Of a DNA stretch of 18,673 nt, positions 904-18,673 are shown one piece after another. The stretch's first letter is position 1; the number at the start of each line of letters is the position of its first letter. Source of the stretch: a virus (Duplodnaviria; Heunggongvirae; Uroviricota; Caudoviricetes); the IMG/VR virus record IMGVR_UViG_2617270979_000006; one strand, given 5' to 3'. The position numbers were made by a program, and so were the translations under genes. The notes below the pieces were generated by a model that was not told the origin of the DNA, did not search any database, and saw only the letters and a program-made list of their open reading frames with translations.

Positions 904-2295
904 TTATGCTTCATGTTGCTTTTTGAGATCGCTTCTAGCATAGCTCCACTCAATAATGTTGTCGGGTCGTTGCTGATCGAAAAGGATACGGGATTCAATA
1001 CCATTACCTAAAAAGCTGGTATTCCCATCTACGTAAGAAGCTATCCCTTGTGAACCAACACGAAGAATATTTTCTAATGGCTGCTTTGTTCTTGCTGCAT
1101 CGCTAAGGAGATATAAACCCGGGTACGTTTTGTTAGCACGGTGAAAAAAAAGTTCATTGTCAAAACACATGACGATGATTATTTGTCCCGACATGAGATC
1201 GGAGAGCATTTCAGTTGGCAGATGCAAACTCATAAATGGTCGAGACAAAGGGTCAAAGAATGAATCATTTATATTCACAACAGGGCTTTTTATACCGAGA
1301 CTATCCATCCATCCATTGAAGGCAACAAAGCCCATTTCAGAATCACGGTACATACCTAAGAACAAACATTCATCAATAGTATCAATTGCCCAATTTTTTC
1401 CTCCGCGAATAATCTCCCACATTTTAACTAAGCGGTGGGTATAAAATTCAGACGGATGATCTATCTCATTGATTTTAACTTTAGACTGATGAAAGTTGTC
1501 AAAGCCCTCGCCAGTATTAATCGCCTCCAGAACATTCATGCCACGAATGATTTGCCTTTTTATGCGATTAAATTGCTTAACATCATTATCAGGCATATTG
1601 TTAATGAAGTTTTCTTCAAAGTGCGGACATTCTGAGATAACAGAAAATTCAGCAGCTTCATAAAGCTCATTATTCTTTTCACCTGTTTTAACTTCCACGA
1701 GCTGGAAGCCATCCAGTAGATTAAAGGTGACTAAATCTCCCACATGAACAAATGTGCTCATGTCAGAGACAATCGCTACGGAGTGTTTGTCCTGGTTGAT
1801 AAGATCGGCTGCGACCATAGAATCAATTATGTTATCTTCTGATAGATTGTCATTGCTTGCATTAATAGGTAAACGCCGCAAACTAGAGTGTTCTTCATCA
1901 AGAATGCTCCAAATTATTGAGTCAATACAACGGCGAAGAATAAGAATTTCAAATTTTTTTAAACTTATTTCATCAATACACTTTTCTTTATTTTCTTTAT
2001 CCTTGTTTCGATGGTGCTCTTTTTTTTCAGTTTCCAATCTTTTTATATCTCTCAGCCGAATAATAATCTCAAAAGATATGATTTTTTGTGAGTCTTTCCA
2101 ATTTTTGAGACAGGTTTCATACTCTGCAAGAAAATCCTCATCATTGGAAGGTAGTTCTTGAATTGGATTCCCTCCCCTTATCATTTTGGCAAGTGCATGC
2201 ATTAAAGATACATAATGAGGTGATAAAATTGTCCAAAACTTCCTAAACGGTTTGTACTTTTCAAGAAAAGTTGACTCATCAGTATAATTCATCAT
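904..2295 (-). CDS. Uncharacterised 463-aa protein, downstream partner of the AbiH-like gene; central D-x14-E-V-K motif suggests a possible PD-(D/E)xK nuclease core
   Basis: Long ORF in visibly AT-rich DNA. Track start is TTG at 2301; the ATG at 2295 is preferred because GAGG lies 6 nt upstream. Lies 89 nt downstream of the AbiH-like gene on the same strand. Motif HVGDLVTFNLLDGFQLVEVK maps to 1687-1737. Lysine/glutamate-rich segment near the N-terminus. Confidence 0.7.
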   Translation of the reverse strand: MMNYTDESTFLEKYKPFRKFWTILSPHYVSLMHALAKMIRGGNPIQELPSNDEDFLAEYETCLKNWKDSQKIISFEIIIRLRDIKRLETEKKEHHRNKDKENKEKCIDEISLKKFEILILRRCIDSIIWSILDEEHSSLRRLPINASNDNLSEDNIIDSMVAADLINQDKHSVAIVSDMSTFVHVGDLVTFNLLDGFQLVEVKTGEKNNELYEAAEFSVISECPHFEENFINNMPDNDVKQFNRIKRQIIRGMNVLEAINTGEGFDNFHQSKVKINEIDHPSEFYTHRLVKMWEIIRGGKNWAIDTIDECLFLGMYRDSEMGFVAFNGWMDSLGIKSPVVNINDSFFDPLSRPFMSLHLPTEMLSDLMSGQIIIVMCFDNELFFHRANKTYPGLYLLSDAARTKQPLENILRVGSQGIASYVDGNTSFLGNGIESRILFDQQRPDNIIEWSYARSDLKKQHEA

Positions 2296-2384
2296 AACCA
2301 AACCTCATTCCTCTTATCTATTTTCCTCAAGGTATAAAATACCAGCCTTTTTTACATAATTATAGTTATAATATGAAGTCTCAT

Positions 2385-3254
2385 TCAGATATCTTCATAC
2401 TGTACGTAAGAAATATTTGAGCCTCTGATACCATAATCTTCTAAACTGCCTGATTTTTTCTCACCTCTATATAAAGCAACTATCCATCGAGCATTTTCTT
2501 GGATGCTTTTATTTATTTCAGTAAAGTATTCACCGTCAACTTCGGCGAGCGAGTGGCCTAAAACGATGACCTCGTCCACATTTTTAAGCGATGAGAAAAA
2601 AACGTTTTCTTCTTTAATTATGTCTTCGCTGGGCTTGAATGTATTACCGAAGTATTCGTTTATTCTGTCGTATGCCTCTGCTATTCTTGTATCTTGATCC
2701 GGTCCTATATATGGATTTAGTGACTTTTCCACCCTAAAACTATGACCAAGTATGAGATCGTCATCGTAACTACAATTGCCGTGAATATGTATGATTTGCT
2801 CGTCTGGAACGGCATAGATCTGCTGCAAGGTATTTGTATAATTAAATGAAAAATAGATGCTTTCTCTTGGTATGGGCGGGATGTATTGCTTAGGATTGTA
2901 AGCATCGGCTATGTTAATCCCTTTAACCCAATCAGCGAATTGCTCCTTCAAACGAGCTGACAGCATTTGTGTGATTTTATTTACTTCATATTGGTAATCG
3001 TGATGATAAGCATCGCTCCAATCATCGGTATTGTATGAAGCCAAAAATATCTCACTGTTTTGAAGGATAAGCTCATAATCAATTTCACCTAAAGCATTTT
3101 CTAACTCATTCCACTCGTCCCCAGCAGGAATGTATTCTTCTATCGCGTCATATAGATCTTGGTCATTTTTTTCTACATACGACTTAAAGTGCTTGTATCC
3201 TGTTGGTAAGCCATGACGCATGTCAAATCCATTTCCTATTATGTAAAGCCTCAT
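2385..3254 (-). CDS. AbiH-family abortive infection protein (289 aa)
   Basis: N-terminus MRLYIIGNGFDMRHGLPTGYKHF matches the hallmark IIGNGFD-x-HGL motif of the AbiH family (Pfam Bacteriophage abortive infection AbiH), with further FNYTNT, HIHG and LGHS motifs. Start moved from track position 3305 to the internal ATG at 3254, which has AAGGGA about 7 nt upstream. AT-rich codon usage. Confidence 0.75.
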   Translation of the reverse strand: MRLYIIGNGFDMRHGLPTGYKHFKSYVEKNDQDLYDAIEEYIPAGDEWNELENALGEIDYELILQNSEIFLASYNTDDWSDAYHHDYQYEVNKITQMLSARLKEQFADWVKGINIADAYNPKQYIPPIPRESIYFSFNYTNTLQQIYAVPDEQIIHIHGNCSYDDDLILGHSFRVEKSLNPYIGPDQDTRIAEAYDRINEYFGNTFKPSEDIIKEENVFFSSLKNVDEVIVLGHSLAEVDGEYFTEINKSIQENARWIVALYRGEKKSGSLEDYGIRGSNISYVQYEDI

Positions 3255-3357
3255 TGTTTTTCCCTTAGTCGAATTGTATAAAAATACTAACATGGCCTGC
3301 TCCACGTTGACTACTATCCCCTCCTTTGAGTAATGCCTTCATCAGATGTAACAACAT

Positions 3358-3654
3358 TTGCGAGCTTCCACAGTTCGCTCAAAGCGGACTAGAAGGTTAG
3401 CTTGCGTCGGACTTGGCGTATTTAAAGAAGTGCTGGTGGAGACTGGTTGTTGTGTTCCATTTCTACAGAACAAAATCACAGAAACTATACCCAATAGTTA
3501 TATTGAATCAATGATGAGACAGCCTCATATTTATCAGGACTGGTGTACGTCCAATACAGGAGGTTGTCGTGCTGGTTCTCAAATGTGCGCTAGCTATTGC
3601 GGCTGTAATGGCAATTTATTGTCTTGCTGTTGTTCTTACGGATCGCCTTTCTGA
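3358..3654 (+). CDS. Questionable Cys-rich small ORF (98 codons from TTG; 47-aa version from ATG at 3511)
   Basis: C-terminal part MMRQPHIYQDWCTSNTGGCRAGSQMCASYCGCNGNLLSCCCSYGSPF has 9 Cys in 47 residues and is Gly/Ser/Asn-rich. No convincing RBS before any candidate start. Divergent from the AbiH promoter region, upstream of hok. Confidence 0.25.
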   Translation: MRASTVRSKRTRRLACVGLGVFKEVLVETGCCVPFLQNKITETIPNSYIESMMRQPHIYQDWCTSNTGGCRAGSQMCASYCGCNGNLLSCCCSYGSPF

Positions 3655-3812
3655 TTGATTTTATATTGGCGAGGTGACGTGAGTTAAGTAGAATTGCTGC
3701 GGGTGCTTGAGGCTATCTGCCTCAGGCATGAACACCAAAGGCAGATAGAGAAAAGCCCCAGTTAACATTACGCGTCCTGCAAGACGCTTAACATTAATCT
3801 GAGGCCAATTTC

Positions 3813-4025
3813 ATGCTAGACACATGTAGGTTAGCCTCTTACGTGCCGAAAGGCAAGGAGAAGCAGGCTATGAAGCAGCAAAAGGCGATGTTAATCGCCC
3901 TGATCGTCATCTGTTTAACCGTCATAGTGACGGCACTGGTAACGAGGAAAGACCTCTGCGAGGTACGAATCCGAACCGGCCAGACGGAGGTCGCTGTCTT
4001 CACAGCTTACGAACCTGAGGAGTAA
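3813..4025 (+). CDS. Mok-like leader reading frame, in-frame N-terminal extension of Hok
   Basis: MLDTCRLASYVPKGKEKQA precedes the Hok Met in the same frame, the same arrangement as E. coli MokC/HokC (MLNTCR...) as I recall it. Confidence 0.55.
   Translation: MLDTCRLASYVPKGKEKQAMKQQKAMLIALIVICLTVIVTALVTRKDLCEVRIRTGQTEVAVFTAYEPEE
3870..4025 (+). CDS. hokD: Hok/Gef family type I toxin (HokD/RelF-like, 51 aa)
   Basis: MKQQKAMLIALIVICLTVIVTALVTRKDLCEVRIRTGQTEVAVFTAYEPEE: single transmembrane helix plus conserved Hok C-terminus. AAGGAG lies 9 nt upstream of the ATG. Followed by a hairpin (4033-4054) and a terminator. Confidence 0.9.
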   Translation: MKQQKAMLIALIVICLTVIVTALVTRKDLCEVRIRTGQTEVAVFTAYEPEE

Positions 4026-4093
4026 GAGACCAGGCGAGGGAGAAATCCCTCGCCACCTCTGATGTGTCAGGCATCCTCAATGCACCCGCACTT

Positions 4094-4117
4094 AACCCGC
4101 TTCGGCGGGTTTATTTT
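4094..4117 (+). terminator. Intrinsic terminator of the hok transcript
   Basis: Stem aacccgc / gcgggtt with ttcg loop, followed by tatttt. Confidence 0.6.
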
Positions 4118-4483
4118 ATCTGTAAATATTTTTATAAAAATAATGCCCACACACAGCATAAAACAAAAAGTATCACAGATAAAAAAGGAGCGTAATGTGC
4201 AGATTTGTTGTTTTCCATATTTACTCACTTTAACATAATCAATATTGATATGGTTGTTGTTTTGGTGGTTTCAAACGAGATGTTATGGTGATCTGGTAAA
4301 ATTGCATAACATTAAAATTTAATTTATCTAATCGCTTTTAATAATAAGCGTTGTGTTTATCCCAACAATCTGTTGTTTGACTTTTATTCCATTAATGTAG
4401 GGGCTTTACACTGGAACCAGTTTATTTATACTTTATACGCCAGCCTGAACAACTGGCACCTGCTGCGCCAGCAGAGACAACCG

Positions 4484-4762
4484 ATGGCGCACGATACCAA
4501 ATTACACAATTCTGATGATTCTGCCGTCTTTGCCAGCAGGTGCGGACGGCGTTTTCATGCATTCAAATCGGACTGGTTCCAGCATCCACCATGCACTGAA
4601 GAGCAGGCTGAATGGATAATTCAGTGTTACCGCAGGCGCGGATACGAGGTTAAAAAAGCCCTTAGCCTCGACTACCGTCACTGGATAATCTCAGTCAGAT
4701 TGCCTTACTCCGAACGCCCACCGCGTCCGTCCCGTACATTCCAGCAACGCCTCTGGAGGTAA
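4484..4762 (+). CDS. Hypothetical small prophage protein (92 aa), possibly Rem-like by position
   Basis: ORF MAHDTKLHNSDDSAVFASRCGRRFHAFKSDWFQHPPCTEEQAEWIIQCYRRRGYEVKKAL... Its stop (4760-4762) sits one base before the GTG start of the DUF968 gene, suggesting translational coupling. Weak RBS; the track start at 4373 is rejected because the upstream part is AT-rich and low-complexity. Confidence 0.45.
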   Translation: MAHDTKLHNSDDSAVFASRCGRRFHAFKSDWFQHPPCTEEQAEWIIQCYRRRGYEVKKALSLDYRHWIISVRLPYSERPPRPSRTFQQRLWR

Positions 4763-4763
4763 C

Positions 4764-5813
4764 GTGCGGGTATTACTTCGACCTGTTCTGGTACCGGAAC
4801 TCGGGCTGGTGGTCGTTAAGCCGGGCCGTGAATCCATGCCGGTATTCCACAATACCCGGGTACTGGTGGAGCCGGAACCGAAAAGCATGCGTAATCTGCC
4901 GTCCGGGGTCGTTCCTGCCGTTCGCCAGCCGCTGGTGGAAGACAAAACATTGCTGCCGTTTTTCAGTAACGCACGGGTAATTCGTGCTGCTGGTGGTGCT
5001 GGTGCATTGTCTGACTGGCTGTTGCGCCATATTAAATCCTGCCAGTGGCCACACGGCGATTATCATCACAGCGAAACCGTTATTCACCGATATGGTACCG
5101 GCGCAATGGTGTTGTGCTGGCACTGCGACAACCAGCTGCGTGACCAGACATCCGAATCACTCGAGCAACTTGCTCATCAAAACCTGTCAGCATGGATGAT
5201 TGACGTCATCGGTCACGCAATAAGCGGTACGCAGGAGCGTGAATTATCTCTGGGTGAATTATCCTGGTGGGCGGTCCGCAATCAGCTGGCGGACGCGCTA
5301 CCGGAAGCGGTATTACGTCGCTCGCTGGGATTACCAGCGGAAAAAATCTGCTCGGTGTACCGCGAAAGCGACATCGTACCGGGAGAGCAGACCGCCACCA
5401 GCATATTGAAACAGCGCACAAAAAATCTTGCACCGTTGCCTCACGCCCACCAGCAACAAAACCCATCACAGGAAAAGACGGTGGTAAGCATCACCGTTGA
5501 TCCAGAGTCTCCGGAATCTTTCATGAAGCTGCCTAAACGTCACCGGTGGGTTAAGGAGAAATACACACGCTGGGTTAAGACACAGCCGTGTGCTTGCTGC
5601 GGTATGCCAGCCGACGATCCGCATCATCTGATTGGTCACGGGCAGGGCGGAATGGGAACCAAAGCACATGATCTCTTTGTTTTGCCTTTGTGCAGAAAGC
5701 ATCACGACGAGTTGCATACGGATACCGTGGCATTTGAAGAGAAGTATGGCTCCCAACTGGAGCTGATTTTTCGATTTATCGATCGCGCGCTGGCAATTGG
5801 TGTGCTGGCCTAA
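4764..5813 (+). CDS. ydfU: DUF968-family prophage protein (YdfU-like, 349 aa) with C-terminal HNH-like Cys/His cluster
   Basis: GTG start with GGAGG 4 nt upstream. C-terminal [43 protein letters not shown]. Length and position immediately upstream of Q match Qin YdfU as I recall it. Confidence 0.8.
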
Positions 5814-5830
5814 TTTTGTGGAGTAAGTTG

Positions 5831-6208
5831 ATGCGTGATATTCAGATGGTTCTTGAGCGTTGGGGGGCATGGGCGGCTAATAATCATGAAGATGTGACCT
5901 GGTCGTCCATTGCCGCCGGTTTTAAGGGATTAATTCCTTCAAAAGTAAGATCTCGTCCGCAATGCTGTGACGATGACGCGATGATCATTTGTGAATGTAT
6001 GGCTCGCCTGAAAAAAAACAACAGCGATTTACATGATTTATTGGTGGACTATTATATCGGCGGCATGACTTTTATGGCGCTTGCACATAAGCATGGGCGA
6101 TCTGATTGTTGGGTTGGCAGGATGCTCCAGAAAGCTGAGGGCGTAGTGGAGGGCATGCTGATGGTGTTGGATCTCCGATTGGAGATGGATGCTGATTGTT
6201 CGAAATAA
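5831..6208 (+). CDS. quuD: Late-gene antitermination protein Q (QuuD-like, 125 aa)
   Basis: [35 protein letters not shown]... matches my recollection of DLP12 QuuD. ATG at 5831 has GGAG 7 nt upstream; the track start is a TTG at 5816. Confidence 0.8.
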
Positions 6209-6306
6209 TTAAAGGAAAAGTTGCTGTCTGATTTTCATTAGTCTAACATTTTAAATGTTGGAATCGCAACGTAGTTATTATCATATAACAGCTTGTTTCC
6301 TGATTT

Positions 6307-6335
6307 AGCCAGCCTCCCCAAAGGCTGGTTTTTTT
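6307..6335 (+). terminator. tR'-like intrinsic terminator downstream of Q (end of a short late leader RNA)
   Basis: Stem agccagcc / ggctggtt (with one G.U) and loop tccccaaa, followed by a run of 7 T. Position right after Q is where lambdoid phages carry pR'/qut/tR'. Confidence 0.55.
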
Positions 6336-6363
6336 CTAATAAGTATCATTTCGGGTGGGGATT

Positions 6364-6888
6364 TTATTGTTTAACCCATAATAGTTCATTGACATTGAAT
6401 CCCAACTTTTGAGCGGTACGCACATAGTCTGCTTTTACATTATCTGGAATAGTTTGGGTCCTTGCCAGAATCCATAGGTATTCTCTGTTCGGACCACTGA
6501 CAAGAGCATACTTATACTCATCATCCAGTTTGATTACATTATAGCCACCATAGAAGGGGCCAAAAAACGAAACTTTCAACGCTGCAGTTTTAGTATCTCC
6601 AGTAAAGTATGCTTTACCTTCGCTCTCGCTCCATTTGTTTTTCGTTGGATCGTATCCACGGTTAAGTACGCGAATCCCTCCGTCGTTCCGTTTTTCATAA
6701 GTAGCGCTGACCTGTTCCAGACCACGTTCGAACCAGTTCTCGAGGCGAGCTATTTCATACCATTTTCCGAGGTAGCGGTTGGCGTCAAAATTTGTAATCG
6801 GCTGCACACCTTTAGGTGGTGTCGGGGCCTTACATGCTATAAGAGTGAAAGAGAGTGCAATGCCAGTCAACACAGGCCATAACTTCAT
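6364..6888 (-). CDS. blc: Bacterial lipocalin Blc-like outer-membrane lipoprotein (174 aa)
   Basis: MKLWPVLTGIALSFTLIACKAPTPPKG: signal peptide with lipobox LIAC. Strong similarity to E. coli Blc as recalled (NFDANRYLGKWYEIARLENWFERGLE..., KAYFTGDTKTAALKVSFFGPFYGGYNVI). AGGA 7 nt upstream of the start. Confidence 0.85.
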   Translation of the reverse strand: MKLWPVLTGIALSFTLIACKAPTPPKGVQPITNFDANRYLGKWYEIARLENWFERGLEQVSATYEKRNDGGIRVLNRGYDPTKNKWSESEGKAYFTGDTKTAALKVSFFGPFYGGYNVIKLDDEYKYALVSGPNREYLWILARTQTIPDNVKADYVRTAQKLGFNVNELLWVKQ

Positions 6889-7080
6889 AATAAATCCTGT
6901 ACTTTTGATAGTTGAGAGTAAGTATGAAAGATAGATGAGTACGACCGATCACTTAAAGAACTTTCCTACTATATTAGGAATAGTCAATAACAGAAAAATT
7001 GTCAGTGATGAAGCCAGAAAGGCAATTTAGTCCGTGCACTACAAAGTTTATGTGTTAATGAATTAGTCAAGGGGGAGGAA

Positions 7081-8040
7081 ATGATAAAAAAACCTGTGAT
7101 TGGGATCAGCGGTTGTTTGGGCGGTTCTGCTGTTCGTTTTGATGGTGGTCACAAAAGAGATGACTTTTTAATGGACAAATTAGTGGAATGGGTAACATTC
7201 AGACCAGTATGTCCGGAAATGGCTATAGGGCTGCCAGTTCCGCGTCCTGCTCTACGACTTGTGCGCTCGAAGCAAGGAAATATACGGATGTGTTTCAGCC
7301 ACGACCAGAATGAGGATGTGACAGAGAGAATGACAGAGTTTAGTCGTTCTTATATGGACAAATTAAAGGATGTATCGGGGTTTGTGGTTTGTGCTAAATC
7401 TCCCAGCTGTGGCATGGAGCGCGTGCGTGTCTATGATGAAAATGGTAATCGAGGTCGTAAAGATGGAGTGGGACTATTTACGAGCACTTTGATGGAAAAG
7501 TTTTCCTGGCTACCGGTTGAGGAGGATGGGCGATTACATGATCCAGTGCTTCGTGAGAATTTTATTGAAAGAGTTTTTGCTTTGCATGAGCTCAATCACC
7601 TTTACAAGGAGAAATTATCAAGAAGAGAGTTATTAGCTTTTCATAGTCGTTATAAGCTTCAGTTGTTGGCGCATAGCCAGGCAGGCTATAAAGATATGGG
7701 ACCATTTGTGGCTGCAATACACGAGTGGGCGGACCTTGAATCATACTTTGAGGTGTATCGTGATAATCTGATGGCGATTCTCAGAAAACCAGCATCACGT
7801 AAAAATCACACGAATGTGCTGATGCATATACAGGGGTATTTTAGTAATTACTTAAGTACACGCCAGCGTAAAGAGTTGAGCGAGGTTATACTTAACTATC
7901 GCTTTGGCACATTGCCTCTTCTTGCGCCGTTGACTCTGCTGAAGCATTATCTGGGTGAGTATCCTAATGATTACTTGCTTACACAGAATTACTTCGATCC
8001 CTATCCGGAAGAACTGGCTCTAAGACTGAAGGTGAATTAA
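7081..8040 (+). CDS. TudS (DUF523) - DUF1722 fusion protein, RudS-like putative thiouridine desulfidase (319 aa)
   Basis: N-terminal domain carries the three conserved Cys expected for the TudS [4Fe-4S] site (GISGCLGG, RPVCPE, CAKSPSCG). C-terminal half resembles YbgA/DUF1722 (HSRYKLQLLAHSQ, HTNVLMHIQGYFS). Strong RBS GGGGGAGG. Confidence 0.75.
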   Translation: MIKKPVIGISGCLGGSAVRFDGGHKRDDFLMDKLVEWVTFRPVCPEMAIGLPVPRPALRLVRSKQGNIRMCFSHDQNEDVTERMTEFSRSYMDKLKDVSGFVVCAKSPSCGMERVRVYDENGNRGRKDGVGLFTSTLMEKFSWLPVEEDGRLHDPVLRENFIERVFALHELNHLYKEKLSRRELLAFHSRYKLQLLAHSQAGYKDMGPFVAAIHEWADLESYFEVYRDNLMAILRKPASRKNHTNVLMHIQGYFSNYLSTRQRKELSEVILNYRFGTLPLLAPLTLLKHYLGEYPNDYLLTQNYFDPYPEELALRLKVN

Positions 8041-8446
8041 CTGTATGCGATATCATCTGAAAGTGATGAGTTCCTGTATGCAGGATATTTACAATCGTAA
8101 AAACTACGCTATGATGCTCATAGTGTCAGTTTTTATAAAAATCCTGTTCACGCTAAAGAAAACATTGAGATGCAATTTAATGTTGGTAAACATACCAGCC
8201 CCAAAAGATTTTATTCAATCTGTTTTTATATGAAGATATTTCAAGTGAATATAAAGAGCATATAATATTATTATTGCACGCAGCTATTATAATATAACAG
8301 ATTAGTTTAATGATTTGTTTTTTGTGAGTTAAACACATGGTTTTATAGTTGTGATGCAATGAGATTTTCCTTATTGTTGAACTGGCGAATATTGATTTTC
8401 CACCTATACTTACCTGGTGTAACCCCAATGATATCAGGTGGATAAT

Positions 8447-9160
8447 ATGTCATACATATGTTCTATCATTTTGGTGTTGAACTCGTTTGGTGTCCGAATT
8501 GGTAAAGAAGATATTTTGTTTAAAAAAGGAAATGCTGTCCTCATTGAATACAATTTAAAAGATCTTTTTTCGTCAAATACAGATCATCTAATGATCGTAG
8601 ATGTTGAGGAGAAAACAGTTAATGATTTCTTTAAAAACTACACACTCTCACCTTTTTCTGTAAGAAGGTTTTATCCGTCATACTTGATAGTAGAATGTGA
8701 AGATTTTTCATTGTTAAAGAACTTGGTTGCATGCTTGAATTGTGATAGCAAAACCGTGGATGTAGTTAGAAATCAAATATCACTTGCATGTCTTGCTGTC
8801 TTATCTTCAGAGAAAATAGTGCAAAGTTTTTTGTTCGGAAGTCTTAATAACTTAGGTTGTAAAGTTAAGGCTATTATTCACTCGGATATCTCAGCGTCAT
8901 GGAGACTTTGTGATATATCTTCAAGATTATATATGAGCGAGAGTTTGTTAAAAAGAAAATTAAAAGACGAAGGATTATCGTTTAGTAAATTAATTCTTGA
9001 AGAACGAATGATGATGGCGCAAAGATTATTGATCTACAGTAACCATACTGTCGGCAAGGTGGCGGGAATATGCGGGTATGACAATGCATCATATTTTGTA
9101 AGTGTTTTTAGAGGATATTTTGGTGTGCCTCCGCACCAATATTTATCAAGATTTTCTTAG
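8447..9160 (+). CDS. AraC/XylS-family transcriptional regulator, AppY/GadX/YdeO-like (237 aa)
   Basis: C-terminal double HTH (SESLLKRKLKDEGLSFSKLILEERMMMAQRLL, GYDNASYFVSVFRGYFGVPPHQY). N-terminus MSYICSIILVLNSFGVRIG...FKKGNAVL parallels prophage-encoded AppY as recalled. AT-rich gene preceded by about 400 bp of AT-rich DNA. Confidence 0.8.
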   Translation: MSYICSIILVLNSFGVRIGKEDILFKKGNAVLIEYNLKDLFSSNTDHLMIVDVEEKTVNDFFKNYTLSPFSVRRFYPSYLIVECEDFSLLKNLVACLNCDSKTVDVVRNQISLACLAVLSSEKIVQSFLFGSLNNLGCKVKAIIHSDISASWRLCDISSRLYMSESLLKRKLKDEGLSFSKLILEERMMMAQRLLIYSNHTVGKVAGICGYDNASYFVSVFRGYFGVPPHQYLSRFS

Positions 9161-9228: not shown

Positions 9229-9260
9229 ACGCCAGAATAATTGCTGGCGTTTTTCTTTTT
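9229..9260 (+). terminator. Intrinsic terminator after the AraC-like gene
   Basis: Stem acgccag / ctggcgt with 8-nt loop, followed by tttttcttttt. Confidence 0.6.
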
Positions 9261-9350: not shown

Positions 9351-9566
9351 ATGAAATCCATGGATAAGTTAACAACGGGCATCGCCTACAGCACCTCTGC
9401 AGGCAGTGCTGGCTACTGGTTTTTACAGTTGCTCGATAAAGTCACGCCCTCACAGTGGGCGGCAATAGGTGTATTGGGTAGTCTGGTATTTGGCATGCTG
9501 ACGTATCTGACAAATCTTTATTTCAAGATTAAAGAAGACAGGCGTAAGGCTGCGAGAGGAGAGTAA
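9351..9566 (+). CDS. Phage-21-type class II holin / pinholin (S21, EssD/EssQ-like, 71 aa) with dual-start motif
   Basis: [71 protein letters not shown], with Met1 and Met4 starts typical of the antiholin/holin pair. RBS GGAGGTGAGG. The upstream extension of the track ORF (9267) is rejected. Confidence 0.85.
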
Positions 9567-10906: not shown

Positions 10907-11269
10907 GGTAATATTAAATCGGAACATTTACATCGCGGAATGTAAAATTTAAATAAAAAGGACTCTTCCATGAGCCAAAATTCCTGAAATCTTAAGGGTA
11001 AGATAAAAGGTCTTAATCAGAATGACACGTTATTATTAATAAATAAAGCTATTCTTTCATTGCTGTGTTTTTCTTTACAAAAGTAATCCTTGCTATGGGT
11101 GGTTAATCATGCGTTAATGGTGTTCTGGTTTGTTACAAATTTATCTGAAGCAGTCATTGTTATAATTTTATTATTTGTACCTCTTGAGATTTCCTTGTTG
11201 GTTTTTCTCTCTGATATTTTTTTTCGGACCATTCTGCCCAAGGGCTAATTTCTTCAAAAGGTAATAATT
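10907..11269 (+). promoter_or_regulatory. Long AT-rich leader/promoter region of the csp gene (candidate cold-shock 5' UTR)
   Basis: About 360 nt of ORF-free AT-rich DNA with a perfect TATAAT near 11160 and TTGCTA-N18-TTAATG near 11085-11115. CspA-family genes are known to have long structured 5' UTRs. The transcription start is not determinable by eye. Confidence 0.4.
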
Positions 11270-11482
11270 ATGTCTAACAAAATGACTGGTTTAGTGAAAT
11301 AGTTTAACCCTGAAAAAGGTTTTGGTTTCATCACGCCGAAAGATGGCAGCAAAGATGTGTTTGTCCATTTCTCAGCAATTCAGAGCAACGATTTCAAAAC
11401 ATTAACTGAGAATCAGGAAGTTGAATTTGGTATTGAGAACGGACCTAAAGGTCCTGCCGCTGTTCATGTAGTGGCGCTTTGA
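11270..11482 (+). pseudogene. cspI: CspA-family cold-shock protein gene (CspI-like) interrupted by an in-frame amber codon at codon 11
   Basis: Reads [72 protein letters not shown]-stop. The TAG at 11300-11302 replaces the invariant Trp (TGG) of the WFN motif. No downstream in-frame Met, so no full-length product without suppression. Confidence 0.8.
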
Positions 11483-11681
11483 GGTAGACAATATTACAAA
11501 CCATATTCACTTTAGATGCCCGTGTTGTCATGGTTCCCAGTATAGAACATCATCTTTTGATGTTTCTGACATGAATCCTTTCGGGGCAAAATGTATCTTT
11601 TGTAAATCAATGATGATTACATTTGATAATATTTCACAATACTTAAATGCCAGCCGTCTGTCGTTGGATTTAAAAAAGTGA
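11472..11681 (+). pseudogene. Zinc-ribbon small ORF (YdfK/YnaE-like, by recollection) lacking a start codon for its conserved N-terminal part
   Basis: Open frame ...FRCPCCHGSQYRTSSFDVSDMNPFGAKCIFCKSMMITFDNISQYLNASRLSLDLKK with two Cys pairs (CPCC, CIFC). No ATG/GTG/TTG between the upstream stop (11469-11471) and the internal ATG at 11571. Confidence 0.35.
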
Positions 11682-13930: not shown

Positions 13931-15556
13931 ATGGGTTTTTCATCAGCCCGAAATTTGGGAAGGGACATATCGGCAGGATTTTCCCCACCACGTCGCATGC
14001 CGATTTCGGAGGCTGTTAAAAAATTCATGCGTGTTCCCAAGGGGGCTGGTAACTCGGTGCCATGGGATCCTGAACTGACACCCTACATCATTGAGCCCAT
14101 GAACTGCCTGGCATCGCGTGAATACGATGCGGTGATTTTTGTTGGTCCTGCGCGAACAGGGAAGACCATTGGTCTGATCGATGGATGGATTGTCTATACC
14201 ATCGTTTGCGATCCTTCGGACATGCTCGTTGTGCAGATGACCGAAGATAAGGCCCGCGAGCATTCTAAAAAGCGCCTCGACAGAACGTTCAGAAGCAGTG
14301 CGGCGGTAAAGAAAAGAATGAGTCCACGTCGTAACGACAATAATGTCCATGATAAGACGTTCAGGGATGGCTCGTTCCTTAAAATTGGTTGGCCCTCGGT
14401 CAACATTATGTCGTCGTCGGATTACCGGTTTGTCGCCTTAACCGATTACGACCGTTTTCCGGAGAATATCGACAGCGAGGGTGATGGTTTCTCCCTGGCC
14501 TCAAAACGTACCACCACATTTATGTCCGCCGCGATGACTCTGGTGGAGAGCTCGCCGGGACGTGACATCTGCGACAGCAAATGGCGACGTAAGTCGCCTC
14601 ATGAAGCGCCACCGACGACTGGTATTCTTTCCCTTTACAATCGTGGTGACCGCCGCCGCTGGTACTGGCCATGTCCGCACTGCGGTGAATATTTTCAGCC
14701 AGCTATGGATGCCATGACCGGCTACCGTAATGAACCGGATCCCTTTAAAGCCAGTGAGGCGGCGTATCTACTTTGCCCACACTGCAGCGGCATTATCACT
14801 GCGGAGAAAAAGCGTGAGCTCAATAGTGCAGGAGTCTGGTTGCGTGAAGGTCAGGTCATTGATCGTAACGGCAACGTTTCCGGTGAACCGCGCCGCTCCC
14901 GTAATGGCAGCAAGGATAAGGAACGCGAGCTTACCATTCAGCCAGGCATTATTTACGATGATCTGAAACCCGGCGAAGAAATCGGAATGGTGAAGTCGGA
15001 TCGCCCAAATCCTAACCTTGAAACTTTTCGTAATGGTCAGTTGCGTGCCGTGGCGGCGGGCAGTCGTCTGAGTTTTTCCAGTACAGCGCGCAACTATAAC
15101 GGCACTTACAGCGCCCAGCGTCAGGAGCTGGTTGAATCCACTGATGGCTACCTGATCCTGCAGGACTGGTTTATTGGTGCCGTCACCCGTCCGATGTATC
15201 GTGCCTGGCTGAAACAGGCTGTGGCATCCGGTGTTATCAGGCTACCCCGCGATCTTGACCTTTCTTCACTGTATACCGCGGTGTATTCCGGACCGGTGAT
15301 GCCGTGGATTGACCCTGTTAAGGAGGCTGAGGCCTGGAAAATCCAGATTCGTGGTGGAGCGGCGACAGAATCAGACTGGGTACGTGCTGGTGGTCGTAAT
15401 CCGGATGATGTCAAACGTCGGCGCAAGGCCGAAATTGATGAAAACCGCAAGCTGGATCTGGTATTTGATACCGATCCGGCCAGTGATAAAGGAGGCAGCA
15501 GTGCCGCAACGAAACGACAGGAGCCGCAGCACACCGACGACCAGTCCGAAGAATAA
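13931..15556 (+). CDS. Terminase large subunit GpA-family ATPase domain, with a C-terminal portion that looks portal-like (possible in-frame terL::portal fusion)
   Basis: Walker A VIFVGPARTGKT; GpA-type zinc-finger region WYWPCPHCGEYF...LLCPHCSGI, collinear with lambda gpA N-terminal half as recalled. C-terminal about 200 aa (SFSSTARNYNGTYSAQ...PWIDPVKEAEAWKI...) lacks nuclease motifs and resembles lambda-type portal C-termini. RBS GGAGG. Confidence 0.7.
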   Translation: MGFSSARNLGRDISAGFSPPRRMPISEAVKKFMRVPKGAGNSVPWDPELTPYIIEPMNCLASREYDAVIFVGPARTGKTIGLIDGWIVYTIVCDPSDMLVVQMTEDKAREHSKKRLDRTFRSSAAVKKRMSPRRNDNNVHDKTFRDGSFLKIGWPSVNIMSSSDYRFVALTDYDRFPENIDSEGDGFSLASKRTTTFMSAAMTLVESSPGRDICDSKWRRKSPHEAPPTTGILSLYNRGDRRRWYWPCPHCGEYFQPAMDAMTGYRNEPDPFKASEAAYLLCPHCSGIITAEKKRELNSAGVWLREGQVIDRNGNVSGEPRRSRNGSKDKERELTIQPGIIYDDLKPGEEIGMVKSDRPNPNLETFRNGQLRAVAAGSRLSFSSTARNYNGTYSAQRQELVESTDGYLILQDWFIGAVTRPMYRAWLKQAVASGVIRLPRDLDLSSLYTAVYSGPVMPWIDPVKEAEAWKIQIRGGAATESDWVRAGGRNPDDVKRRRKAEIDENRKLDLVFDTDPASDKGGSSAATKRQEPQHTDDQSEE

Positions 15557-15569
15557 TTCCTGGTTCAGG

Positions 15570-15665
15570 ATGCAGGCTGGTCACCAGAGTGACGCGGATA
15601 TTTATATTTATGACGAGATTGGTTTCTGGGGTGTTACAGCGAAGCAGTTTAGGGTAAATTCGTAA
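15570..15665 (+). pseudogene. N-terminal stub of a phage head maturation (prohead) protease
   Basis: MQAGHQSDADIYIYDEIGFWGVTAKQFRVNS-stop. The IYIYDEIGFWG...TAKQF pattern is the characteristic N-terminus of ClpP/S49-like prohead proteases; the frame terminates after 31 codons. Confidence 0.4.
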
Positions 15666-15737
15666 TGATTACCTAAATACGTTATTCTTTTGTTCAAAAA
15701 GTGATTTTGCTATAGGTAGGGAGTATGTTCTTGGATT

Positions 15738-15772
15738 AAGAATAAAAATCGCCATGAAAGAGCTTCATGGCG
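15738..15772 (-). terminator. Candidate intrinsic terminator on the minus strand within the AT-rich region
   Basis: Perfect 9-bp stem cgccatgaa / ttcatggcg with a 5-nt loop; on the minus strand it is followed by ATTTTTATT. Confidence 0.45.
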
Positions 15773-16476
15773 AGTACATAAACGTACAAAATATGATGAA
15801 AGTAGAGTGGCGTAAGCCACTATATTAAGATATGACAATAGCGAAGAAAAGTAAATAACATTTTATGGGCGTTTAATTGTTAATTATAAAAACTAGAGTG
15901 CCCGATATTGTTTATCTTGCTTTAAAATAATGTACTCAAACCAAATTTTTGAGCTAAAAGCTCAAATAATATAAATGCAATGATAATGTTTAATAAGACA
16001 ATTAGCTTGCTTTGTATTTTCATTTCGGAATACTGTTAAGTAACTTTGATGACACTAACAATAGATCGGAATTTTCTTAGAGTCAATGGTCACTGTTTTT
16101 GCTTGCAAAGCAAATGTTTTTGGTGGTTATAAGTTTTCTTAATATAGTCACCTATGCAACTTGTTCCGTGTGGAGATTAAAGGTTAAAATTTAATGCGAA
16201 GATGGAATTATAATATATTTTTTTATAATTAATTTAACCTTAACATCGTTGCTGGCGGCATGGAAGAAATATCGGGTCTTGCTGATGTCGTGTTGGCACT
16301 TCCTTAGTGCGGTTATCGAATGGCCAGCTGTACCTGTGGGGTAAAAACTTTATATGGGTGCTATTTTTATAATAGCTGGTAAAAACTGGCCGAACTGAAA
16401 TTCACTGTTGATAAAAAAGATGTGTTTGAGTGTATGTCATTGTTTTCTTAATGGAATCCACTAGAATGCAGCGAAT

Positions 16477-16674
16477 TTAAGAAGGTGGGTTTTTATTGGA
16501 ATATAAACTACAATAATGCTCAACTCGTTCGTAGAATTGTTTTTTCTTATTTTTTGGAATGCTAACCATTATATGCATTATGGGGGCGATACTTCCTGAT
16601 AATTTACATGATGCATACATTGAAGCAATAAATTCAATATCATTGTCATCAAAGTTAAAGCTTTCTCCGTCCAT
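16477..16674 (-). CDS. Candidate small protein (65 aa) inside the AT-rich ORF-poor region
   Basis: MDGESFNFDDNDIEFIASMYASCKLSGSIAPIMHIMVSIPKNKKKQFYERVEHYCSLYSNKNPPS, with AAGGAA 5-6 nt upstream of the ATG. No recognisable family; AT-rich DNA produces ORFs by chance. Confidence 0.3.
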   Translation of the reverse strand: MDGESFNFDDNDIEFIASMYASCKLSGSIAPIMHIMVSIPKNKKKQFYERVEHYCSLYSNKNPPS

Positions 16675-17389
16675 TTCAATTCCTTATGTGTTTGGCACAA
16701 CTGATGCTGTATCCCATGAGAATTTATGCAAGTTGTTATGTTTGATTTGATATTGCAATGATAATTGTAGCTAATTGTTTTCAATTGAGTGAAAGTTTAT
16801 TTCGAGTGATTAAGTCGAAAAAAAAGATTTCTCACGGTTAGTAAGCGTATTAGGTTAGTATTCAGATATGAATGGTATTAATGACTAAATTTTCAATCAT
16901 ATATGGATTTTTATGCTGATGAAGATGTTTTATTTGGCGATTCGTCAAGCATCTTCACTTAAGTAATCGTATATTTTAAGAGTGCAAAAGAGAAAGGGAC
17001 AACGTTGCTCGCACTCTGGATTAAATATAGGGTGTTGTTAAACTGCGTTGATACATAATTGTACCGGATATTGAGTGGTCTGAAGTCCCAGTCATTAAGT
17101 AATCGTTTCGTGATATGCCGCAGAAACGTTGTATGCAATAACGTTCTGCGGTTGGCTGATGCACTTTCGAGAGTGTATTGAATAATTTCAAGCCGTTATT
17201 GTTTTTACGCGTAACACCATGAAAAGACTGCTTATCTGTTGGGTATTTTTTGGGGCATATATGGGACAGAAATAGGCCACAGATAGATAGTAAGATCGAA
17301 CTCAGGATGCTTTTGAAAAAATGTAACTATCTGAAAAAACCTAGAAAGCGCCAAGGAAACCACAGAATGAGAAAAAACATCTGTGAATT

Positions 17390-18673
17390 ATGGATTTCCA
17401 GTTATATTCGCTCGGCGCAGCGTTAGTGTTTCATGAAATATTTTTTCCTGAATCATCAACGGCAATGGCGTTAATTTTGGCAATGGGAACCTACGGTGCA
17501 GGTTATGTGGCGCGTATTGTCGGAGCATTTATTTTCGGCAAAATGGGCGACAGAATAGGGCGTAAAAAAGTGCTCTTTATTACCATCACCATGATGGGGA
17601 TCTGTACCACCTTAATTGGTGTGTTACCGACCTATGCACAGATTGGTGTTTTTGCCCCCATCTTGCTGGTGACGCTGCGTATTATTCAGGGGTTGGGTGC
17701 AGGTGCGGAAATTTCCGGTGCCGGTACGATGCTGGCGGAATATGCACCAAAAGGTAAGCGCGGAATTATCTCCTCATTTGTAGCTATGGGAACTAACTGC
17801 GGAACCTTGAGCGCAACGGCAATCTGGGCCTTTATGTTCTTCATTCTCAGTAAAGAGGAACTGCTGGCGTGGGGATGGCGTATACCGTTCCTGGCGAGCG
17901 TTGTCGTGATGGTCTTTGCTATCTGGTTACGTATGAATCTGAAAGAAAGCCCGGTCTTTGAGAAGGTTAATGACAGCAACCAACCCACAGCAAAACCTGC
18001 ACCTGCTGGTAGCATGTTCCAGAGCAAATCCTTCTGGCTGGCAACAGGGCTGCGTTTTGGTCAGGCGGGTAACTCCGGGTTAATTCAGACTTTCCTTGCA
18101 GGCTATTTAGTGCAGACGTTATTGTTTAACAAAGCAATTCCAACAGATGCATTGATGATTAGTTCGATTCTCGGCTTTATGACCATTCCGTTCCTTGGTT
18201 GGTTATCCGATAAAATTGGTCGCCGGATCCCGTATATTATTATGAATACCTCCGCGATTGTGCTGGCATGGCCAATGCTTTCTATCATTGTAGATAAAAG
18301 CTATGCCCCGAGCACCATTATGGTTGCACTGATTGTGATTCATAACTGTGCGGTGCTGGGATTATTTGCTCTGGAAAACATTACCATGGCAGAAATGTTC
18401 GGCTGTAAAAACCGCTTTACCCGGATGGCTATTTCTAAAGAAATTGGTGGTCTTATCGCTTCCGGTTTTGGTCCTATCCTGGCGGGTATTTTCTGCACCA
18501 TGACGGAATCCTGGTATCCGATCGCCATTATGATCATGGCATATTCAGTAATTGGTTTAATCTCTGCGCTGAAAATGCCAGAGGTGAAAGACCGTGATTT
18601 AAGTGCGCTGGAAGACGCTGCGGAAGATCAACCGCGTGTTGTAAGAGCTGCGCAACCTTCCAGAAGTCTGTAA
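17390..18673 (+). CDS. ydfJ: MFS metabolite:H+ symporter-family transporter YdfJ, N-terminally truncated at the prophage junction (427 aa)
   Basis: Typical MFS motifs (GKMGDRIGRKK, GWLSDKIGRRIPY). The ORF begins in the middle of what should be TM1 (aligns to the W-x-DF-x-LYG motif region of ShiA/KgtP-type symporters) and is bounded by an in-frame TGA at 17384-17386. Length matches E. coli K-12 YdfJ as recalled. Confidence 0.85.
   Translation: MDFQLYSLGAALVFHEIFFPESSTAMALILAMGTYGAGYVARIVGAFIFGKMGDRIGRKKVLFITITMMGICTTLIGVLPTYAQIGVFAPILLVTLRIIQGLGAGAEISGAGTMLAEYAPKGKRGIISSFVAMGTNCGTLSATAIWAFMFFILSKEELLAWGWRIPFLASVVVMVFAIWLRMNLKESPVFEKVNDSNQPTAKPAPAGSMFQSKSFWLATGLRFGQAGNSGLIQTFLAGYLVQTLLFNKAIPTDALMISSILGFMTIPFLGWLSDKIGRRIPYIIMNTSAIVLAWPMLSIIVDKSYAPSTIMVALIVIHNCAVLGLFALENITMAEMFGCKNRFTRMAISKEIGGLIASGFGPILAGIFCTMTESWYPIAIMIMAYSVIGLISALKMPEVKDRDLSALEDAAEDQPRVVRAAQPSRSL

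Follow-up and report, generated by a model that had tools for sequence, protein, structure and literature searches.

RudS proteins join a TudS domain to a DUF1722 domain, and in the published RudS model the DUF1722 part is the one that binds tRNA (PMC11417400). The closest described relative of the gene studied here is gp66 of Escherichia phage 1H12 (H3V29_gp66 / YP_009909557), which is the RudS_vir of Jamontas et al. (Nucleic Acids Res 2024; PMC11417400). Table 1 of that paper lists Cys12, Cys44 and Cys110 as ligands of H3V29_gp66, and RudS_ST carries the same cysteine numbers. The gene for RudS_vir was synthesised and then overexpressed in E. coli, upon which the 4-thiouridine (s4U) content of tRNA was lowered; all six RudS orthologues assayed, RudS_vir among them, reduced tRNA s4U in this host (PMC11417400). 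By the same study, stand-alone TudS left tRNA s4U unchanged in vivo and YbgA had no effect on s4U. The activity of RudS_KT was abolished by mutating the cysteines, E51, S111, S113 or R60, and a UVA growth-delay phenotype was shown only with this Pseudomonas protein, overexpressed (PMC11417400). Ten viral RudS sequences are mentioned there, RudS is tied to light-responsive operons and light stress, and E. coli is said to be devoid of RudS (PMC11417400), a statement that is found likewise in reviews of 2025-2026.

Within the window, by which we mean the whole stretch of 18,673 nucleotides that was analysed, an ORF preceded by a strong Shine-Dalgarno ribosome-binding site (GGGGGAGG) encodes a protein of this type (Table 1). 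A sequence-only reading of this DNA had proposed a TudS domain fused to DUF1722. The Pfam search bears this out, both domains being full length with E-values of about 1e-40: PF04463 (2-thiouracil desulfurase/DUF523/TudS) covers residues 7-149 (profile positions 1-141 of 141, E=5.8e-40), and PF08349 (DUF1722) covers residues 192-309 (profile positions 1-117 of 117, E=9.4e-40). When all PDB chains were searched by phmmer, TudS (6Z92) was the sole return, at a weak similarity (E=8e-4). The three-cysteine Fe-S signature also claimed in that reading is recovered in this alignment, in which C12, C44 and C110 fall on the TudS ligands Cys10, Cys43 and Cys104, within the shared motifs CL.G, CPE and SPSCG. 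E46 lies within CPE, S107 and S109 lie within SPSCG, and R55 is the putative catalytic arginine; the correspondence of these four residues to E51, S111, S113 and R60 of RudS_KT was drawn by constant offset from the cysteine ligands and not from a direct alignment with RudS_KT. Across 76 distinct aligned homologues C12, C44, E46, R55, S107, S109 and C110 are invariant, as are R19 and K106. A single-sequence AlphaFold2 model of the protein was unusable (mean pLDDT 42.9).

Table 1. Features of the cargo region and its borders, in positions of the window
Feature	Position	Strand	Basis and remarks
Antiterminator Q (PF06530)	5816-6208	+	Pfam E=2.1e-50; RefSeq 'antiterminator Q family protein' at the identical locus of strain 1919D62; left border of the slot
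Intrinsic-terminator hairpin with run of seven T	6307-6337	+	Terminator scan; fold -14.9 kcal/mol, z=-3.5; ~100 nt past the Q stop; candidate tR'
Blc-type outer-membrane lipocalin lipoprotein	6364-6888	-	Lipocalin_2 E=7e-43; NCBIfam Blc subfamily 310 bits, cut-off 267
blc/rudS divergent intergenic region	6889-7080		192 nt
rudS (TudS-DUF1722 fusion)	7081-8040	+	ORF call and Pfam; ATG start, 319 aa
TudS domain	7099-7527	+	Inside rudS
DUF1722 domain	7654-8007	+	Inside rudS
Key RudS residues	C12, C44, C110, E46, R55, S107, S109		
A-tract/hairpin/T-tract stem-loop	8097-8136	+	57 nt past the rudS stop; fold -17.6 kcal/mol, z=-7.0; candidate rudS terminator
AraC-family regulator (YdeO/GadX-like)	8438-9160	+	HTH_18 E=3e-16; PHROG 1450; RefSeq start at 8447
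Terminator-like hairpin with T-run	9229-9258	+	Between the AraC-family gene and holin; fold -11.3 kcal/mol, z=-2.7
Holin (P21 S type, essD-like)	9351-9566	+	PF04971 E=6e-34; essD coordinates transferred from RefSeq annotation of strain 1919D62; right border of the slot

The protein of the window and RudS_vir are 92% identical over all 319 residues, with no gaps. They share the cysteines 12, 44 and 110 and stand in the same cassette, in the order Q, Blc (on the minus strand), RudS, regulator and holin; none of their 26 amino-acid differences lies at a ligand or a catalytic residue. The two loci differ in that the AraC-type neighbour in the window is only 76% identical to that of 1H12, and in that the element in the window is a defective Qin-type prophage whereas 1H12 is a free Jouyvirus phage. 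All sequence-level hallmarks of the RudS family, namely both domains, their order in the fusion, the cysteine ligands and the catalytic residues, are present. Together with the identity to RudS_vir they support the RudS-like assignment made earlier and, as far as sequence can tell, the two-domain RudS feature is real, far beyond chance. The novelty implied in that reading does not stand, since a phage RudS from the same Q-S cassette had already been cloned and assayed (PMC11417400). Both the enzyme and an orthologue of it in phages had been described before, and neither a new enzyme nor a new mechanism is reported here; what we add is the fixed cassette, its prevalence in E. coli, the linkage with Blc, the missing MerR regulator and the placement in the late operon.

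Two other described proteins resemble parts of the window RudS. With TudS (6Z92) it shares the catalytic domain, the three-cysteine [4Fe-4S] site and the CPE and SPSCG motifs; TudS, of about 166 aa, has no DUF1722, whereas the window protein is a 319-aa fusion and so not a stand-alone TudS. E. coli YbgA (b0707) is a stand-alone DUF1722 protein, to the model of which the C-terminal 155 residues of RudS match with 189.3 bits. An identification as YbgA, for which a DUF1722-only protein of about 169 aa with a score over the PRK10167 cut-off was looked for, was rejected, as the score falls below the NCBIfam PRK10167 equivalog cut-off of 237 and the protein has an extra catalytic domain of 160 residues. 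RefSeq nevertheless names the protein (WP_032264514.1) 'YbgA family protein', and PHROG 3275 is listed with unknown function. As these labels of RefSeq and PHROGs hide both the catalytic TudS domain and the published function of RudS, the annotation should be corrected.

The Q-S cargo slot in which the earlier reading had put the gene was confirmed, rudS lying between antiterminator Q and holin. From Pfam and the RefSeq annotation of the identical locus in strain 1919D62, the gene order is DUF968/YdfU, Q, blc (minus strand), rudS, the AraC-family gene, P21-type holin, DUF1327, lysozyme, Rz, cspI, ynfN and gnsB. The AraC-family gene has 33% GC, and its product remains under every NCBIfam cut-off, that of YdeO (112 bits) included. 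This arrangement is that of the morons carried by lambdoid phages between Q and S, for instance stx in Stx phages, with which the locus shares the slot past Q and the candidate tR' and before holin, the foreign composition and a candidate terminator of its own. Unlike the stx morons, the cargo here consists of a tRNA-demodifying enzyme, a lipocalin and a regulator, and includes no toxin. In the library of papers that was searched, nothing relevant came up on what RudS/DUF1722 might do in phages or prophages, nor on a lipocalin in the Q region. A link of lipocalin to LitR light regulons was not confirmed by search of this library and is not relied on.

The prophage that carries this cargo is a defective one of Qin type, because the ORF at 13931-15556 joins the N-terminal part of the large terminase to the C-terminal part of the portal (a deletion fusion that removes packaging), and there are no head or tail genes. 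Phage homology ceases near 15651, and head and tail genes are absent up to the MFS gene ydfJ, a marker of the Qin attachment region, which starts at 17390 and with which the part 17390-18673 of the window begins. Between the prophage end and ydfJ lie ~1.6 kb (15600-17250) of 30-36% GC, where ORFs do not exceed 68 aa; annotation of other genomes places tail-fibre and tfaQ remnants in this neighbourhood. Towards the other end of the window, Pfam, NCBIfam, PHROGs and PADLOC gave no match to an ORF of 464 aa (904-2301, minus strand). This ORF adjoins an AbiH abortive-infection gene (2385-3305, minus strand; Pfam E=8e-69) within an island of 32-38% GC, and may encode a so far uncharacterised AbiH partner; an ISVsa5 insertion interrupts it in strain 1919D62. 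The Rfam scan of the whole window returned only the sok antitoxin RNA, part of a hok/sok module (3701-3875, plus strand, 119.9 bits), and a cspA-type thermoregulator 5' UTR ahead of cspI (11124-11509, plus strand, 107.9 bits), the cargo region being empty.

Three terminator-like hairpins are found around the cargo genes. The one past Q, which also faces the 3' end of blc, is a candidate tR', at which polymerase modified by Q would not stop, by analogy with the lambdoid late operon. The stem-loop past rudS is a candidate terminator of this gene: none of 200 shuffles was as stable, and it is the best-conserved block in the first half of an otherwise diverged rudS-AraC spacer. With these hairpins around it, rudS looks like an insulated unit, one that Q-modified polymerase would cross in the sense direction after induction. 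A point against a functional rudS is that a sigma-70 promoter scan of the 192 nt between blc and rudS gave no site at threshold; across the region, promoter-like sites are as numerous as shuffling would lead one to expect. Within the blc-rudS intergenic region, the two phage alleles show conservation. A regulatory sequence shared with chromosomal loci was sought in it by alignment of phage and Citrobacter sequences, and was discarded for want of conservation. The AraC-family protein could regulate rudS or blc.

DNA of the cassette (window positions 6900-8300) was detected in 1,146 of the 5,426 complete genomes of E. coli, and no less than 80% of the rudS ORF in 1,064 of the same 5,426 (~20%). 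By megablast against phage genomes, the cassette was found in 12 GenBank phage records, including those of the isolated viable phages 1H12 and IdasGreatGrand. The order Q (plus), Blc (minus), RudS (plus), AraC (plus), holin (plus) is kept in more than 70 of 80 IMG/VR contigs, among which the modules next to it (YdfU, YdfR, lysozyme type) differ. The AraC-type gene always sits between rudS and holin, being 76-85% identical between alleles as against 92-97% for RudS. Two contigs of a 'Candidatus Nanosynbacter' MAG (JARKOR010000151.1 and JARKOR010000135.1) also carry the coliphage cassette, with Q, Blc, RudS, AraC and holin genes at 92-97% protein identity; they are almost certainly a mis-binned coliphage fragment.

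Comparison of the rudS alleles of the window and of 1H12 yielded dS=0.30 and dN=0.042 (dN/dS=0.14), which denotes purifying selection, and each of the 139 full-length copies recovered from collections of genomes and viruses is intact. These data bear on the possibility that rudS is an inert passenger, left over from an old capture in a decaying cryptic prophage and neither expressed nor selected. That the prophage of the window is defective, that the promoter scan found no site upstream of rudS and that disrupted copies are known (few, comprising one IS1 insertion and a 147-nt remnant in derivatives of E. coli B) would agree with such a passenger. Nevertheless, with a dN/dS this low, no broken copy among those of full length, invariant catalytic residues, and a cassette that travels in viable phages and is kept by about a fifth of E. 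coli genomes, we consider it extremely unlikely.

The remnant deserves a separate remark. In NEBExpress (NZ_CP053599.1, 2847011-2847157) and B-ZidR (NZ_CP117469.1, 3004502-3004648), rudS is cut down to its first 147 nt, which are 100% identical, and the piece is annotated '2-thiouracil desulfurase family protein'. This truncation may account for the apparent lack of RudS in laboratory B strains, a lack that K-12 shares. The statement that E. coli lacks RudS holds for K-12 and B and not for the species.

Relatives of the window RudS with 65-76% identity are encoded by Citrobacter, Enterobacter, Leclercia, Kluyvera, Klebsiella, Pectobacterium and other genera. The chromosomal copies of the Enterobacteriaceae (Salmonella ORF319/STM1389, which is RudS_ST, and those of Enterobacter cloacae and Citrobacter) share its length and, in the case of RudS_ST, its cysteine numbering; usually they come after genes for a MerR/MlrA-like regulator and a transthyretin-like protein, or else stand at the end of a cluster of light-stress type. 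In most Enterobacter-type loci a divergent Blc homologue, 75-80% identical to phage Blc, lies ~1.45 kb upstream of rudS; the MerR/MlrA-like regulator, which rudS follows, and a transthyretin/HIUase-like gene are placed between the two. C. sedlakii and Citrobacter sp. JGM124 show the arrangement of the phages, with blc and rudS as immediate, divergent neighbours. C. braakii has two rudS copies on separate contigs, one of them between genes for an AI-2E transporter and a GGDEF-EAL protein. The other closes a cluster (positions 1257-7944 of our locus L003) formed with genes for amine oxidase, DUF1365, CFA-synthase-like, DUF2878 and DUF3833 proteins; past it comes the gene of an SOS-response-associated peptidase (SRAP). 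This cluster fits the link of RudS to light-responsive operons (PMC11417400), and we count it in favour of a RudS role for the window protein.

A MerR-type regulator accompanies 43 of the 64 chromosomal loci and none of the 82 phage loci; on the side of regulation, this counts against the role proposed below for the phage enzyme. A tblastn search with the Enterobacter MlrA-like protein likewise gave 0 matches in the 82 phage loci. The AraC neighbour was considered as the phage counterpart of the chromosomal MerR regulator, an idea that was rejected because the protein is AraC/YdeO-like. Base composition sets the two groups apart as well, blc and rudS of the phages having 43-44% GC (43% for rudS) as against chromosomal medians of 58-59% (58% for rudS). 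We infer that blc and rudS joined the phage lineage as a pair, leaving their regulator behind, that this capture was not a recent one from any of the sampled genera, and that the AraC-type gene was acquired separately.

At 19 positions, all phage alleles have a fixed residue that is found in none of the 57 chromosomal homologues. These residues are not catalytic; they include P142S as well as R175Y and R255S, by which two otherwise conserved arginines are lost, and these substitutions are a further point against an unchanged RudS function. Also on this side are the published results with RudS_vir, a comparatively weak tRNA desulfidase although its soluble protein was high, and the RudS protein with which a uracil auxotroph fed free 4-thiouracil had the shortest lag (PMC11417400). 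The fixed residues, together with the weak tRNA activity and better 4-thiouracil use of RudS_vir, leave room for a shift in the substrate preference of phage RudS, which may have occurred but is a minority possibility. In its full form, the argument would be that the substrates of the phage enzyme are, as with TudS, chiefly thiolated pyrimidines or nucleotides in free form (4-thiouracil, 4-thio-UMP), and that it serves the salvage or detoxification of products of tRNA turnover instead of removing s4U from whole tRNA. The loss of R175 and R255 from the linker/DUF1722 part, to which tRNA binding is attributed, would be in line with it. We judge this reading unlikely, taking into account that RudS_vir still lowered tRNA s4U in vivo, which stand-alone TudS did not, that no RudS equalled TudS in supporting growth on thiouracil (PMC11417400), and that purifying selection acts on a DUF1722 domain of full length.

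Considering the domain architecture, the conserved cassette and the selection acting on it, we hold it very probable that the window encodes a functional RudS which, with the divergent blc, forms a self-contained cargo unit between Q and the lysis genes in a lambdoid prophage of Qin type, and which would protect the lysogen or the phage from UVA. RudS would be a [4Fe-4S] desulfidase, the TudS domain of which would turn 4-thiouridine at tRNA position 8 back into uridine while the helical DUF1722 domain would grip the tRNA via its anticodon arm. In the lysogen, expression of rudS may be weak, or conditional from a putative promoter; after induction, Q-modified RNA polymerase would pass tR' and transcribe rudS in the sense direction. 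With less s4U in tRNA, UVA would be expected to cause less tRNA cross-linking, less stalling of translation and a shorter growth delay. The beneficiary might be the UV-stressed lysogen, or the UV-induced phage in need of late protein synthesis.

The position of rudS downstream of Q and of the candidate tR', in the sense of late transcription, could also be taken to mean that the enzyme is a weapon of the lytic cycle. Loss of s4U8 would then mark host tRNAs (e.g. tRNA-Tyr or tRNA-Ser) for decay by the degradosome, or would evade a tRNA-directed defence, and translation would be shifted to the advantage of the phage. When RudS_KT was overexpressed, two tRNAs fell to about half their abundance, and loss of s4U in Vibrio cholerae leads to degradosome attack on tRNA-Tyr. 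However, the effect on tRNA in E. coli is small, and the pairing with Blc and the candidate terminator of its own are rather those of a lysogenic-conversion moron. By PADLOC, neither RudS nor the AraC-type protein matches any defence family, and we know of no defence system that depends on s4U. A role of this kind appears very unlikely to us, and a functional RudS with a putative part in UVA protection is the reading that we retain.

RudS is among the very few bacterial tRNA modification 'erasers' known. As ~20% of complete E. coli genomes hold an intact prophage copy, an effect of the prophage on s4U and on near-UV growth delay can be tested in natural isolates. A bolder proposal, which we put forward as a conjecture with doubts of our own, is that blc-rudS is a sunlight-tolerance module built into the induction circuit, in which UV damage would induce the prophage, antitermination by Q would drive RudS, and RudS would erase s4U8 and so keep UVA-cross-linked tRNA and stalled translation from impeding late protein synthesis of the phage; domesticated in defective prophages, the module would shorten the UVA growth delay relative to K-12 in about one fifth of E. 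coli strains. If this were true, the textbook near-UV response of 'E. coli' would differ among strains through a prophage.
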